Virus record (IMG/VR): IMGVR_UViG_2518645559_000002
DNA: 12,574 bases
Reading direction: 5' to 3' (one strand)
DNA from: a virus
Lineage: Duplodnaviria > Heunggongvirae > Uroviricota > Caudoviricetes
The stretch's first letter is position 1. The number at the start of each line of letters is the position of its first letter. The translations under genes were made by a program, and so were the position numbers. Below, in pieces: positions 7,495-11,386 of the stretch. Below the pieces are notes generated by a model that saw only the letters and a program-made list of their open reading frames with translations, was not told the DNA's origin and ran no database searches.

Positions 7495-9207
7495 ATGGCT
7501 GTTTATGATGCGTATGGTTCGCAGCAGTTCTATTTTCCGAATGTGTTGAAGTATGATCCTGATCAGCTACGGCAAGAATTACAGGGGAGCGCAGGAGTCA
7601 TTATCGTTGGTGGTGCTATTCTCGAATGCTCATCCGTTGAACAGGCCCAATCAATATTAGGGTTAACAGATGGGAAAAAGGTTAGAACTTATTATTATAA
7701 TGTTCCAGTTGTAACAGATTGGGTGTTTACAACTGAAAAACCACAGTCACCTATATTTTATATTTCTGCAGTTGGTGGGTATCTTATTTTAATGACGCCT
7801 AATTTCGCTTCCGCTGGCATTATTGAAGGTGAATATGTTCCGCTAAACGCCGCGCATAACCGTAATGTAATTCAAAAACTGGTAAGAGACACAAGATTCA
7901 GTAAATTTGAATATGGTGCAACAGGTACTTTTTATGTTCTTGGCTCTATTCATCCATTACGAGATAATATAGAAATACACCACGAAGCTGGGGTTACAGT
8001 TATGGGGCGTTACGATGACCCCACGGTAGGGCCAGAAATTATGGGGTTAAACTCCGGGGGTATGTGGTCCTTTGCACATTTTCTTAACCCTGATGCAACG
8101 GTTTGGGATGGCAATAACTACACAATTACAGCTGTTATGAAAAATGTTACCTACATTCTTAACGGCAAGATAGGTACAGAATATAACTCCATTCATTCTA
8201 AACCGCACAACAACAACCCTATTGGTTTCTTTACTTGTGAAAACTGTAGCGTTGTCGGCTCTGGCGGGGTTATTGGATCTGACCACCGCGGCATTAACGT
8301 AGATGGCGCAGGAGATAATTGCCGTATAGATATTGGGTACGTCACGGGAACCAGCAACAACCCGCTTCAAATGAAAATAAACGCCGAACGCTACGCTTTT
8401 GTTAAAGTTGGTGCTGTTTATGGGGTTAAGTTTGACGGAGGACAAACAAATGCTGTTGTATGGTGCAGTGGTGGACGAATTGATGTTGAAGTTGGCAATT
8501 ATAGATGGGATGGGGTGAATAAACCAATCCTTGCTTACGGCAACAATTGCCAGGAAATCACTTTAAAGGCAGGTATTATCTCTGGTGTTTCGCAATTGAT
8601 GCGTCAGTATAACACCCCTGTGGCTAGAGTGCTGTCTGCGTGGGTAAACAATACAGACTCTCTCATAAACAAAGCGGAAGACACTGACAAGGCTGGTGTG
8701 ACTAAGATTTCTGAGATACGGGGTGTTAACGCAGATGACGCAGTACTTACCAGCGTATTCTATGATGAAACTAAACTATCAACTCAAGAGGTGGTTATCA
8801 TATGTGATAATAATTTTAAAAAAGCAAGTAGTTCATTTGTTTATTTTAAAGGAAAAACATCATCAGGCGCAATAACATCATGGTACTCGCAAAATAATAT
8901 AGACCCATCTAACATAACTGATTTTTCTGATTGGAATATAAAAATAGGACAAAGTGGTTTATTATCCATATCTGGATTATCATTTTCATATAAAATAAAT
9001 AGAAGGTTTCAGTTTTTATCTGTTCAGTTTGTTGATAGCGGAGGTACAGAACGAGTCATAACTATACCAATAGTTATGACACTGGCAACAACGACAACTG
9101 TTAGTTACATTGCAGGAACTAGCAACTTAAGTGTGACTAGAGTGGGAGATACGTTATCTGCAGTATTAAGCGCAGGTAGCTTGCGCTTTGCTAAGGAGCA
9201 CAATTAA
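7495..9207 (+). CDS. P22-like tailspike protein lacking the N-terminal head-binding domain; 570-aa ORF beginning at an internal Met 2 nt after the IS1 end
   Basis: N-terminus [24 protein letters not shown] aligns with P22 gp9 ~residues 95-120 ([26 protein letters not shown], from memory). The rest is Gly/Asn/Thr/Ser/Val-rich, as in beta-helix receptor-binding domains. The 3' third is much more AT-rich. Confidence 0.7.
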   Translation: [570 protein letters not shown]

Positions 9208-9221
9208 ATATTTCAATGAAA

Positions 9222-9254
9222 ATATGAACCTCTCATAAATTAAGAGGTTCATAT
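9222..9254. terminator. Perfect 12-bp inverted repeat hairpin between the convergent tailspike and acyltransferase genes (terminator, better suited to the minus-strand transcript)
   Basis: ATATGAACCTCT(9-nt loop)AGAGGTTCATAT. In the minus-strand transcript it is followed by UUUCAUUGAAAUAUUU. Confidence 0.5.
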
Positions 9255-9277
9255 TACCAATAAAAATTATAACTCAA

Positions 9278-11188
9278 TTAATCTTCAAGTGGGTTTTTAT
9301 TATCTTGCAAGTATTTTTCCGCAATCCACATCATTCCATTGATGCTTAAATGACCATTGTCATGGTACATAGGGTATCCCATTGCGAAAGGTGTGTATTT
9401 TTTATTCTTAAGCATTAGGTAGTACGGGTCAACAAGATAAACATTATTAAAATGTGATGCTGCGCTTTCTATTTTTTTACGCGACTCATCCAATCCTGGT
9501 GCTAGATCAAAATTAGTTTCAGCATCACATGTTCCTCTCTCGTAGCAGGCAGCGGGATTTATTACCCACTCAGGCATTTGATCCATAATAATAACTTTCT
9601 TTGCGTGAGATGAGTAAAATGATAGGAACTCGGTGAAGTTAGCGTTTTTATATGACATATTCTTATCATCCCTTGCCCATCTATTAGCAATGATAATTGT
9701 ATCATATTTACCAGATTTTATTTTTTCATTAATTATTCTTCTGAAGTTTATGCAGACATCAGGGTTTTCTCCATCTTTCTTAACTTCTCTTGTTGGGTAA
9801 CAAGATGAAGTGCTCAGTTGATTTATTTTTATTCCAGCCCTGCGACCCATTTCATCTACAAATGGACCGTAATGCCCTGCATTGGAATCACCAATATATA
9901 GAGCTTCTTTATTTGATGTTTTATCACCTATATAACATTTGGCCATAGACTCATTAAAAGTTATGCCATTTTTTCCTTCTGCGCTAACATGACACCATCC
10001 TTCGTCCATTCCAGCATATTTCACATCTAAATTATGATTTTCTCCTACACTTCTGAATTTGAAGCCATTTGTTATAGTTGACATAAACAACACAATAAAA
10101 GCAGTTGCAATAAAAAATGTGTTAATAAAAATAAAAGAACGAACAAATGATATTTTTGATTTTCTTATTGGATTCTCAATGAATTTTAAACTTAAATATG
10201 ATAAAATAAATGTCAGGAGTACTATTGTCAATTTGACTTCAAGTGAGTCTATCACTCCCATATATGTTGAATATGCAATCAACGGCCAGTGCCAAAGATA
10301 TATTGAGAATGATAGCAATCCAATTGTGGATATTATTTTTGAACCATAGATTTTTGATATCACATTGCCATTAAACCCGTTCCCCCCTAAAATTACTAAC
10401 ATTGCACCAAATGATGGTATCGCAGAATTTAACCCAGGAAACACTGATAATTTGTTCACTGTTACAGATGATGCCGCAATAAGAATAGTTCCTAATATTA
10501 CTACTATGTAAGAATTAAACTCCCTTATTTTTTTATAATCTCTATTCATTAATGCTAGGGCGGACCCTAGAAGCAAGCCTCCAGAGCGTGTGATTGGCAT
10601 ATAATATGAGAACCCAGCGTAACGCCTTGCCATTATTTCAGAGAATATAAAGGCAAATACTGAAATTATTAATGTAATAACACCAATATGTTTTGTCTTA
10701 ATGTGCTTTAGTGCAAGTAAAATAATAATTGGCCATATAAAGTAATATTGCTCCTCTACGGCCAATGACCACATATGAAGTAGTGGCATCTCATCTGCAG
10801 AAGATGAAAAATAAGCTCCTGTCGCTTTCCAAAAATAAAAGTTAGCAGCGTAGATGGATGTGTACAAATAGCTACTAATAAGTGAAGAATAATCCTTTGG
10901 TAATAGGATGAACCATCCGGCTATAATTGTACAAGATGCAACTAAAAAAACATTTGGTACTATTCTCTTTATTCTTCTGTTAAAGAAGTCAGATAATGAG
11001 AAACTATTTCTGTCAATAGCTTTTATAACAATACCAGTGATAAGAAATCCAGAGATAACGAAGAAGACATCAACACCAATAAAGCCGCCACTAAAAGGTG
11101 ATAGCTTGAGGTGATAAGCAAAAACAAGAAGGACAGCAAGTGCTCGTAGGCCATCAATATCAGATCTATATCGTGTAGTCATGGTCAT
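9278..11188 (-). CDS. Membrane acyltransferase-3 (AT3) domain fused to a C-terminal SGNH hydrolase domain; OafA/OatA-like polysaccharide O-acetyltransferase, ~636 aa
   Basis: N-terminal signature RSDIDGLRALAVLLVFAYH and ~10 hydrophobic spans. C-terminal GDSN block (YIGDSNAGHYGPF) and DxxH block (YHDNGHLS). Very AT-rich relative to neighbours. Start ambiguous: TTG at 11200, ATG at 11188 or 11182. Confidence 0.8.
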   Translation of the reverse strand: MTMTTRYRSDIDGLRALAVLLVFAYHLKLSPFSGGFIGVDVFFVISGFLITGIVIKAIDRNSFSLSDFFNRRIKRIVPNVFLVASCTIIAGWFILLPKDYSSLISSYLYTSIYAANFYFWKATGAYFSSSADEMPLLHMWSLAVEEQYYFIWPIIILLALKHIKTKHIGVITLIISVFAFIFSEIMARRYAGFSYYMPITRSGGLLLGSALALMNRDYKKIREFNSYIVVILGTILIAASSVTVNKLSVFPGLNSAIPSFGAMLVILGGNGFNGNVISKIYGSKIISTIGLLSFSIYLWHWPLIAYSTYMGVIDSLEVKLTIVLLTFILSYLSLKFIENPIRKSKISFVRSFIFINTFFIATAFIVLFMSTITNGFKFRSVGENHNLDVKYAGMDEGWCHVSAEGKNGITFNESMAKCYIGDKTSNKEALYIGDSNAGHYGPFVDEMGRRAGIKINQLSTSSCYPTREVKKDGENPDVCINFRRIINEKIKSGKYDTIIIANRWARDDKNMSYKNANFTEFLSFYSSHAKKVIIMDQMPEWVINPAACYERGTCDAETNFDLAPGLDESRKKIESAASHFNNVYLVDPYYLMLKNKKYTPFAMGYPMYHDNGHLSINGMMWIAEKYLQDNKNPLED

Positions 11189-11386
11189 CAAACAATTCAA
11201 TGTAAAGTAGAGTAAACGACAATAATATCAGCTAAAGAGGCTCAAAACACTAGCATCGAATACTTGATTTAACGATTTGTTACTCATCATTCTGAAACAT
11301 CATCACTAAGATTACTTGGTTGCTTCTTAATTAACCGTTGCGTGAGTGAATATTTGTTTGCAATGCTAAAATGTAATATTGGACTG

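Follow-up and report, generated by a model that had tools for sequence, protein, structure and literature searches.

The window, by which we mean the whole stretch of 12,574 nucleotides analysed, is what remains of a prophage at argW in E. coli O104:H4 strain FDAARGOS_348. An IS1 element (positions 6725–7492, plus strand; identified through Pfam DDE_Tnp_IS1 and its inverted-repeat ends) has replaced the prophage late genes and cut a P22-like, O104-specific tailspike gene at codon 90; the remnant (7495–9207, plus strand) holds 570 of 659 codons, starting at the internal Met90, and because IS1 removed codons 1–89, only profile positions 90–113 of the Pfam Head_binding domain (PF09008) remain in the window. 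In 2011C-3493 the gene is complete (659 aa), and intact alleles carry the whole head-binding domain. This IS1/tailspike junction was seen in only 1 of 5,426 genomes, and the IS1 element is context that lies outside the tailspike/acyltransferase module. Past the tailspike come a perfect 13-bp hairpin (9221–9255); a convergent gene for a two-domain acyltransferase of 636 aa, a putative O-antigen O-acetyltransferase (9278–11188, minus strand); a variable 8-bp tandem repeat (AAACTATT; 5.5 copies, 11387–11430, Tandem Repeats Finder); and the integrase gene intS (11417–12574, minus strand; Pfam integrase domains), which is 96–98% identical to the integrases of Sf6, CUS-3 and HK620 and directly past which lies the tRNA-Arg gene argW. 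The order tailspike, modification gene, integrase, attachment tRNA is that of the serotype-conversion modules of temperate phages.

The acyltransferase consists of an AT3 domain (Pfam Acyl_transf_3, PF01757; E = 7.8e-24, residues 14–335) fused to a C-terminal SGNH domain of the AT3-associated type (PF19040; E = 1.8e-32, residues 403–631). Its translation holds RSDIDGLRALAVLLVFAYH, YIGDSNAG and HDNGH, which, from knowledge of the AT3-SGNH family, we take to be the TM1 Arg/His motif, the GDS motif and the DxxH motif of the SGNH domain. A sequence search found no relative of solved structure. From the locus and from the restriction to O104 hosts we infer that the enzyme O-acetylates a surface polysaccharide, presumably the sialic-acid-containing O104/K9 polysaccharide, a modification that would constitute the lysogenic-conversion function. 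The hairpin between the two convergent genes is invariant in all prophages and folds at −16.3 kcal/mol (z = −4.98; equally good folding in 0 of 200 shuffles); it is likely a bidirectional terminator. The 8-bp repeat, which abuts the intS stop codon and lies 199–242 bp upstream of the acyltransferase start, is present in 3, 5, 9, 12 or 13 copies among otherwise near-identical prophages. It is doubtful, though conceivable, that the enzyme is a periplasmic sialate 7-/9-O-acetylating enzyme of O104/K9 whose expression is tuned by this repeat and whose gene sits on a block of ∼2.7 kb that crossovers in the tailspike transfer from one O104 phage to another.

A preliminary description of the sequence, made by eye, had noted a sharp fall in GC content from about 8700, inside the tailspike gene, to 11200, with third codon positions dominated by A and T. 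The fall is real: GC is 0.425 over tailspike positions 7495–8700, 0.345 over 8701–9207, 0.214 in the intergenic stretch (9208–9277), 0.342 over the acyltransferase span (9278–11200), 0.301 over 11201–11416 and 0.479 in intS, which flanks the AT-rich block on the right. When the whole window was segmented by likelihood, change points fell at 7649, at 8756 (GC 0.421 to 0.332; LLR 13.4) and at 11430 (0.358 to 0.484; LLR 28.9), so that the block extends past 11200 to the intS stop codon, at about 11430. Third positions are indeed depleted of G and C, with GC3 at 0.17 over 8756–9100 and 0.28 in the acyltransferase, as against 0.36–0.41 over 7841–8755 and 0.53 in intS. When only the tailspike ORF was considered, a single change point fitted best at 8755, at modest significance (p = 0.023; 2,000 codon shuffles), and a low-GC patch at 8755–9036 (0.273 versus 0.423) outdid 200 of 200 shuffles. 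The block is not uniform, since GC rises back to 0.42 over the last 35 tailspike codons (9101–9207) and interrupts the AT-rich tract. The flanks had been described as ordinary in composition, which holds for intS (0.48) but not for the 5′ part of the tailspike, where 7651–7840 is AT-rich (GC 0.34, GC3 0.19) and the centre (0.41–0.46) stays below intS. As in a horizontally acquired block, composition and codon bias differ from those of the flanks and the edges coincide with homology breakpoints.

An AF2 model of the tailspike (pLDDT 89.9) has a beta-helix tailspike fold; its best PDB matches, all at probability 1.00 but with TM of only 0.3–0.5, are the tailspike depolymerases K2-2 TSP, CBA120 TSP2, HK620 and Sf6, and the predicted structure places it among right-handed parallel beta-helix receptor-binding domains. 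Past the head-binding remnant the gene falls into four segments on the plus strand. The left arm (7651–7840), the AT-rich N-terminal sub-domain of the receptor-binding part, is conserved, being 98–100% identical in six of six prophages compared. The central beta-helix (7841–8762; GC 0.44 overall) belongs to a lineage common to phages without the acyltransferase: against the lytic phage CLB_P1 it is 92–100% and then 78–90% identical, and against a second, NCTC9104-type tailspike allele 53–75%. The distal segment (8763–9100; GC 0.30, GC3 0.17) encodes the final turns of the beta-helix together with the greater part of the C-terminal domain. With the last 35 codons begins a block that is almost the same in every O104 prophage, the codons themselves being 95–100% identical across six of six; one relative, P0124, is 100% identical over residues 536–570.

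These segments have different relatives. Residues 116–422 are 94% identical to two tailspikes, P0125 and P0126, from loci without the acyltransferase, to which residues 423–570 are only 42–44% identical; residues 423–570 instead resemble P0124, P0127 and P0128 (61–74% identity), of which two adjoin the acyltransferase family. A second discordant pair is formed by P0127, with the acyltransferase downstream, and P0130, with gtrABC downstream, whose centres are 90% and C-terminal parts 61% identical. The last 148 codons thus group mostly with tailspikes adjoining this acyltransferase family and the central beta-helix with acyltransferase-less phages. The exception is P0128, which falls in this C-terminal cluster yet lacks both the acyltransferase and the GC drop. 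A 3′ GC drop was likewise not found in the acyltransferase-less relatives CLB_P1, L017, L018 and L019; the homologous C-terminal domain has GC 0.44 and GC3 0.40 in CLB_P1 and GC 0.45–0.47 in L017 and L018. The expectation that C-terminus and acyltransferase would recur together is borne out in that C-terminal type and downstream gene change together in two independent pairs of close relatives, but not throughout, as the acyltransferase is absent from 6 of the 10 tailspike-relative contexts examined.

Pairwise alignments place the joint at the GC drop. Against the MRE162 prophage, clustered mismatches end at 8762 and only 3 follow from there to 9277, and 8763–11474 is nearly identical; against CLB_P1, identity falls from 78–100% to 35–67% at about 8800, and the last 148 codons (8761–9204) share 43–45% amino-acid identity with CLB_P1 and ECO104 4-5-2. 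The drop therefore lies within 10 nt of an independent homology breakpoint and, as had been proposed, the tailspike is mosaic with a boundary inside its coding sequence. Downstream, prophages located at argW, bioA/ybhB and dacD/sbmC differ by 2–9 substitutions over 9208–11385. The right-hand end of the shared block (11431–11474, minus strand) lies just short of the first mismatch, which falls at 11475 in MRE162 and NCTC9104 and at 11486 in A11; these three prophages sit at dacD/sbmC and bioA/ybhB, and the last 58 nt of intS, counted from its stop at 11417, are kept even in prophages at other attachment sites. The position of the joint in the tailspike is not fixed: with the NCTC9104-type allele, the shared block does not begin until about 9101, apart from an isolated 90% patch at 8980–9040. 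The idea of a single cassette, put forward in the preliminary description, thus stands as regards a near-identical block of tailspike 3′ end, acyltransferase and 58 nt of intS carried across attachment sites, but not as regards a fixed left end.

Module carriage is confined to one serogroup: 23 of 36 genomes with O104 wzy/wzx have the module, as against 0 of 5,390 others (Fisher p = 8e-55). This is consistent with published experiments, in which tailspike residues 114–659 were shown to confer O104/K9 specificity (Scholl et al. 2012, PMC3303846). In that study, a pyocin bearing the tailspike kills the module-carrying O104 strains 55989 and 2009EL-2071 and outbreak isolates and also kills RM9387 and 94-3024, the genomes of which lack the module in our comparison; tailspike recognition is therefore independent of the acyltransferase gene. 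These data show that carriage of the acetylase gene does not stop recognition by this tailspike. Indirectly, they speak against a role of the gene in blocking adsorption of same-type phages, as the pyocin kills O104 strains with and without the module and CLB_P1 infects lysogens, in assays in which the enzyme may or may not have been expressed.

We consider it probable that the GC drop near 8756 is a homologous-recombination joint in the receptor-binding part of the O104 tailspike, with an AT-rich block of ∼2.7 kb co-inherited downstream. The block (GC ∼0.33) would comprise the last 148 tailspike codons, the hairpin, the convergent AT3-SGNH gene, the upstream 8-bp repeat region and the final 58 nt of intS. 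It would be passed on whole, and its sequence hardly varies among O104 prophages at three sites in the chromosome; on the upstream side of the joint, the central beta-helix would be of another lineage, common to CLB_P1 and further acyltransferase-less phages. The tailspike gene is probably the nearest homologous sequence adjoining the acyltransferase gene, so that crossovers by which the latter is moved or retained would frequently lie within the tailspike and take the 3′ end of that gene with them. The tailspike 3′ end would then be a hitch-hiker, and no interaction between C-terminal domain and enzyme would be required.

The same joint can be read in the opposite direction, with 7651–11430 as an old AT-rich module into which the higher-GC centre (7841–8762) was imported from a CLB_P1-like lineage; the drop at 8756 would then be the 3′ edge of an imported patch and not the 5′ edge of a cassette, polarity being all that differs. 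We give this reading a chance somewhat short of even, and the centre may be the newcomer just as plausibly as the AT-rich end. The AT-richness begins at 7651, in the left arm conserved in all six prophages, and in relatives spans the whole receptor-binding part: that of the NCTC9104-type allele is uniformly AT-rich (0.34–0.37, GC3 0.22–0.26), the relatives in L012 and L013 show the same bias from the anchor boundary on, and the CLB_P1 gene is homogeneous (0.41–0.48), so that the centre looks native there. These observations count against the AT-rich cassette as a newcomer, as which it had been described. Furthermore, tailspike relatives at 41–42% identity are still paired with acyltransferase relatives at 67–68%, which suggests a long partnership of the whole receptor-binding part with the enzyme. 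However, 8763–9100 is only 45–67% identical to the NCTC9104-type backbone, so an imported patch needs at least three sources, and the tracking of the downstream gene by C-terminal type in the two pairs fits a 3′ end that moves with the acyltransferase. That there was no transfer, and the low 3′ GC reflects chance or the amino-acid composition of a C-terminal beta-sandwich domain, is very improbable. The single-change-point test within the ORF gave only modest significance and GC falls at first codon positions too (0.24 in a 150-nt block from 8845), so amino-acid composition contributes; nevertheless, neither the low GC3, nor the higher GC of the homologous domain in CLB_P1, L017 and L018, nor the proximity of the drop to a homology breakpoint is accommodated.

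The preliminary description took the shared composition to link the two genes functionally, but a shared recombination tract amounts to physical linkage, not functional. A functional link of tailspike and acyltransferase rests on the O104 host restriction and on published experiments, and was proposed in 2012 (PMC3303846), where the downstream acetylase was suggested to modify the O104 antigen. Selection could nonetheless keep C-terminal domain and acyltransferase together if the domain reads or tolerates acetylated polysaccharide. The correlation in the two pairs and the limitation of the module to O104 hosts agree with such co-adaptation, as does the persistence of an intact acyltransferase where the prophage has decayed; TOK-001, for instance, has a frameshift in its tailspike, but its acyltransferase shares a protein accession with that of O104:H4. 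We judge it unlikely all the same: the pyocin kills with and without the module (PMC3303846), CLB_P1 infects the same lysogens with a different C-terminal part, P0128 has the C-terminal type without the acyltransferase, and the joint, at residue 423, precedes the likely domain boundary in the AF2 model by ∼30–60 residues.

The arrangement has close parallels. Shigella phage Sf6 (tailspike gene 14, oac gene 15, int) has the same order and locus, with an O-antigen acetyltransferase between the tailspike and an IntS-type integrase by argW, and its integrase is 96% identical in nucleotides to that of the window; its megablast match covers the head-binding end of the tailspike and int only, and none of the tblastn matches listed joined the acyltransferase to Sf6. 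The Oac enzyme of Sf6 is short and consists of AT3 alone; here AT3 is fused to SGNH. In CUS-3, an E. coli K1 prophage with NeuO whose integrase is 98% identical and whose site is of the same kind, a sialic-acid O-acetyltransferase whose expression is controlled by a short tandem repeat lies next to the tailspike. NeuO is, however, a soluble hexapeptide-repeat enzyme with a 7-bp repeat within its coding sequence, and a NeuO-type identity was ruled out by the membrane AT3-SGNH type of the enzyme here and by its intergenic 8-bp repeat, ∼200 bp upstream. The two-domain architecture is that of the Salmonella OafA/OafB-type AT3-SGNH acetyltransferases, the catalytic motifs of which are present here too, but identity to such acetylases, including those at the same locus of Salmonella P22-like phages, is only ∼33% over 85% of the length. 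Acetylases of this type carried by P22-like phages include 'gtrC', the O-antigen acetylase of BTP1 (Lederbergvirus), and g341c gene 15.

This type of module is well known, and the locus is an ordinary P22-like conversion module. The gene pair was already described in 2012 as EGR74047/EGR74046 (tailspike and putative acetylase) of the German outbreak strain, with a tailspike that, unlike the one in the window, is not truncated by IS1; the available text of that report (PMC3303846) is silent on the break in GC content, the joint within the gene, the second allele of the tailspike, the repeat and the integration at three sites. A framework of modular horizontal exchange of receptor-binding domains, which lists an O104 subtype and includes Kayfuna- and Lederbergviruses among its genera, has since been described (PMC10408124, Virol J 2023). 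In keeping with it, a receptor-binding part is common to a temperate P22-like prophage and a lytic T7-like phage with different N-terminal anchors; unlike in that framework, where the receptor-binding domain is one unit past the anchor, there is an extra joint inside the domain and the tailspike 3′ part travels with a neighbouring gene. The locus thus offers a coordinate-level example of exchange within a receptor-binding domain, not at the anchor boundary alone, and of a lysogenic-conversion gene dragging the adjacent tailspike end along, which bears on host-range prediction from phage sequence and on tailspike fusion engineering such as the O104 pyocin. The 13 sequenced O104 strains without the module are natural controls for any acetylation of the O104 antigen of an outbreak pathogen by this enzyme. 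Elsewhere, in five loci (L008, L010, L012, L021 and L024), a receptor-binding gene and an acyltransferase relative are likewise arranged convergently.

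The tailspike remnant of this argW prophage (7495–9207, plus strand, 570 codons) is compositionally divided, with a GC content of 0.425 over 7495–8700 vs 0.345 over 8701–9207. The spacer separating it from the convergent AT3-SGNH acyltransferase gene (9278–11188, minus strand) has a value of 0.214, the acyltransferase gene itself 0.342, 11201–11416 0.301, and intS (11417–12574, minus strand, with tRNA-Arg argW directly past it) 0.479. Segmentation of the whole window places change points at 7649, 8756 (LLR 13.4) and 11430 (LLR 28.9). When the tailspike ORF is taken by itself, 8755 comes out as the best change point (p = 0.023 over 2,000 codon shuffles) and a low-GC patch at 8755–9036 outdoes 200 of 200 shuffles; GC3 is 0.17 over 8756–9100, vs 0.36–0.41 upstream and 0.28 in the acyltransferase gene. 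The drop in GC noted in the preliminary description, starting inside the tailspike and running through the acyltransferase gene, is thus real by all of these measures, but several details have to be corrected: the AT-rich block ends at the 11430 change point rather than at 11200, it is broken by the last 35 tailspike codons, which climb back to a GC content of 0.42, and the tailspike is not of ordinary composition in its 5′ part, because 7651–7840 is AT-rich (0.34, GC3 0.19) and the centre reaches only 0.41–0.46.

When the region is aligned to CLB_P1, a lytic T7-like phage of O104:H4, and to five further prophages, a joint in homology appears at almost the same place. In the prophage of MRE162 (at dacD/sbmC), mismatches are grouped in 8260–8762, with just three more from there to 9277; the shift in composition at 8755/8756 therefore lies no more than 10 nt from an independent homology breakpoint. 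Identity to CLB_P1 is 92–100% over 7780–8440, 78–90% to about 8800 and 35–67% thereafter, and identity to a second tailspike allele (that of NCTC9104, A11 and TOK-001) is 97–100% over 7540–7840, 53–75% over 7841–9100 and 95–100% from 9101.

The same discordance is seen in the proteins, where a search with the receptor-binding part found 47 relatives whose N-terminal anchors are of at least four kinds. Residues 116–422 of the remnant are 94% identical to two relatives (P0125 and P0126), both from loci where the acyltransferase is absent, vs only 42–44% for residues 423–570. The latter segment is instead 61–74% identical to the second O104 allele (P0124) and to two further relatives (P0127 and P0128); the acyltransferase lies downstream in P0124 and P0127, and P0128 has none at its locus despite belonging to this group. 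A second, independent discordant pair consists of P0127, with the acyltransferase downstream, and P0130 from Hafnia, with gtrABC downstream; identity between the two drops from 100% in the N-terminal sub-domain to 90% for the centre and 61% for the C-terminal part. These incongruent segment identities, together with the GC shift at 8755/8756 and the homology breakpoint at 8762, bear out the earlier proposal of a mosaic tailspike whose boundary falls within the coding sequence. In Hafnia paralvei (locus L013, 7066–9676), a tailspike 65% identical to that of the window has a gtrA/gtrB/gtrC-like glucosylation cluster in the position of the convergent acyltransferase, and the site 3′ of the tailspike therefore acts as an exchangeable slot for O-antigen modification.

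An AlphaFold model of the tailspike built on a 41-sequence alignment (pLDDT 89.9) has its best PDB matches among tailspike depolymerases (K2-2 TSP, CBA120 TSP2, HK620 and Sf6). Regular short strands extend to about residue 466, confidence dips over 451–480, and a strand-rich C-terminal domain follows, so that the joint at residue 423 falls within the last helix turns. With the domain boundary taken solely from the secondary-structure string and confidence profile of the model, the joint lies about 30–60 residues ahead of the likely boundary and not upon it.

The preliminary description went further and envisioned the 3′ end of the tailspike arriving with the acyltransferase as one AT-rich cassette. 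The strongest support for the 3′ end having travelled with the acyltransferase comes from the discordant segment identities and from the finding that the 3′ GC drop was not seen in the acyltransferase-free relatives (CLB_P1 and loci L017, L018 and L019). This C-terminal type is paired with the acyltransferase in P0124 and P0127, though not in P0128. However, the ends of such a cassette are variable: on the left, the shared block starts at 8763 in comparison with MRE162 and at about 9101 in comparison with the second allele, to which a lone patch of 90% identity is found at 8980–9040.

Alternatively, 7651–11430 could represent an old AT-rich module into which a centre of higher GC (7841–8762) was imported, and this fits the data equally well. 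The second allele is AT-rich over its entire receptor-binding part (0.34–0.37, GC3 0.22–0.26), as are the receptor-binding parts of relatives in two other loci (L012 and L013); the CLB_P1 gene is of even composition (0.41–0.48); and acyltransferases 67–68% identical to that of the window remain paired with tailspikes just 41–42% identical to its own. Richness in AT thus characterises the receptor-binding and conversion module as a whole. The two readings differ in polarity alone. The preliminary interpretation is partly supported: the intragenic recombination joint is real, and the tailspike 3′ end is inherited along with the acyltransferase.

The acyltransferase has AT3 and SGNH domains in which the Arg/His, GDS and DxxH motifs are found as expected. 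Among phage proteins, it is closest to the O-antigen acetylases of Salmonella P22-like phages (33% identity); closer relatives (53–68%) come from Enterobacter, Cronobacter, Providencia, Morganella and others, where they are mostly convergent with a receptor-binding gene. A sequence search of the PDB gave no match, and NCBIfam gave only a distant, sub-threshold match to SucT. In one chromosomal locus (L011, 2992–7911), a 61% identical relative adjoins a CTP_transf_3 cytidylyltransferase fusion and a short-chain dehydrogenase, a hint that this subfamily is tied to CMP-activated (nonulosonic or related) sugars. Decay of the prophage has left the gene intact: in TOK-001 (locus L003, 3629–5609), a 1-nt insertion frameshifts and splits the tailspike, yet the adjoining acyltransferase is unbroken and shares its protein accession with that of O104:H4. 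The CLB_P1 homologue of the tailspike (locus L002, 1826–4104) is divided by its annotation into two genes, gp17 and gp17.1, and its alignment shows single-base differences in length.

The tailspike-acyltransferase pair was found in 23 of 5,426 complete E. coli genomes, all 23 among the 36 that carry the O104 wzy-wzx genes (Fisher's exact p = 8e-55); the O104 gene cluster itself has a GC content of 0.27–0.36. A functional link between the two genes, as previously drawn from composition, does not follow from it; such a link had already been proposed, and the system is a well-resolved case of a known type. Exactly this tailspike (residues 114–659 of the full-length protein) was put on an R-type pyocin by Scholl et al. 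2012 (PMC3303846), who also noted the downstream putative acetylase retained in the prophage remnant. In their killing spectrum, the retargeted pyocin killed every O104 strain tested and a K9 strain; sensitive strains included the module carriers 55989, 2009EL-2071 and outbreak isolates, as well as RM9387 and 94-3024, two strains in which the complete genome contains O104 genes but lacks the module. Because carriers and non-carriers alike are sensitive, and because 55989 and epidemic clones can be infected by CLB_P1, possession of the acyltransferase gene is no bar to recognition by its own tailspike type. The classical view of an acetyltransferase shutting out its own phage type is unsupported by that published killing spectrum (PMC3303846), and the gene-presence data argue against simple self-exclusion, provided that the gene was expressed in those assays. 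Sialic acid is a constituent of the O104 antigen, and O antigens of this sort are listed as including Neu5Ac derivatives, for example Neu5Ac,7Ac,9Ac (PMC7685785). The O104 cluster holds a NeuD-like acetyltransferase of its own, and O104 acetyl groups may be added by either this enzyme or the prophage acyltransferase.

Over 9208–11385 the prophages differ by merely 2–9 substitutions. A perfect 13-bp hairpin between the convergent stop codons (9221–9255; z = −4.98) is unchanged in all of them and probably serves both genes as a bidirectional terminator, though not flagged by a consensus terminator scan. Consensus scans of 9150–11500 for promoters and terminators did not exceed shuffled sequence in the number of sites, and no site accounted for acyltransferase expression. 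Beginning at the intS stop codon, 199–242 bp upstream of the acyltransferase start, is a perfect 8-bp tandem repeat (AAACTATT, 5.5 copies, 11387–11430). It is present in 3, 5, 9, 12 or 13 copies in prophages otherwise 2–9 substitutions apart over 2.2 kb and is therefore changing far faster than its surroundings. The repeat could modulate acyltransferase expression; intragenic phase variation as in NeuO is ruled out because the repeat is intergenic.

Shared identity ends on the right at 11474, 58 nt into intS, including in prophages at bioA/ybhB or dacD/sbmC. An argW-type intS end of at least 58 nt, reaching across 11431–11474 of the window, adjoins the acyltransferase block at other sites, namely dacD/sbmC in MRE162 and NCTC9104 and bioA/ybhB in A11 (loci L005, L006 and L004), and no intact intS is annotated in these three prophages. 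The remnant looks like a scar of the block's derivation from an intS-type phage.

The chromosome of E. coli O104:H4 strain FDAARGOS_348 matches the window at 100% identity. P22/Sf6-like early-left prophage genes (about 1778–6300, minus strand) are followed by an IS1 element (6725–7492) that fuses the cIII/kil end of their operon straight to tailspike codon 90 (7495), so that the prophage late region is absent entirely. Tailspike codons 1–89 have been lost through IS1; the intact 659-codon gene is seen in strain 2011C-3493 and kept in other O104:H4 genomes, and the IS1/tailspike junction occurs in this genome only (1/5,426). At the left, 1–1248 is the end part of the csc sucrose locus, where a lacY-like gene is the transporter of the csc sucrose-utilisation cluster (with cscA and a LacI-type regulator; locus L001, 515–5849). 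This cluster is inserted beside a truncated dsdX, directly left of the prophage, and has a GC content of 0.43.
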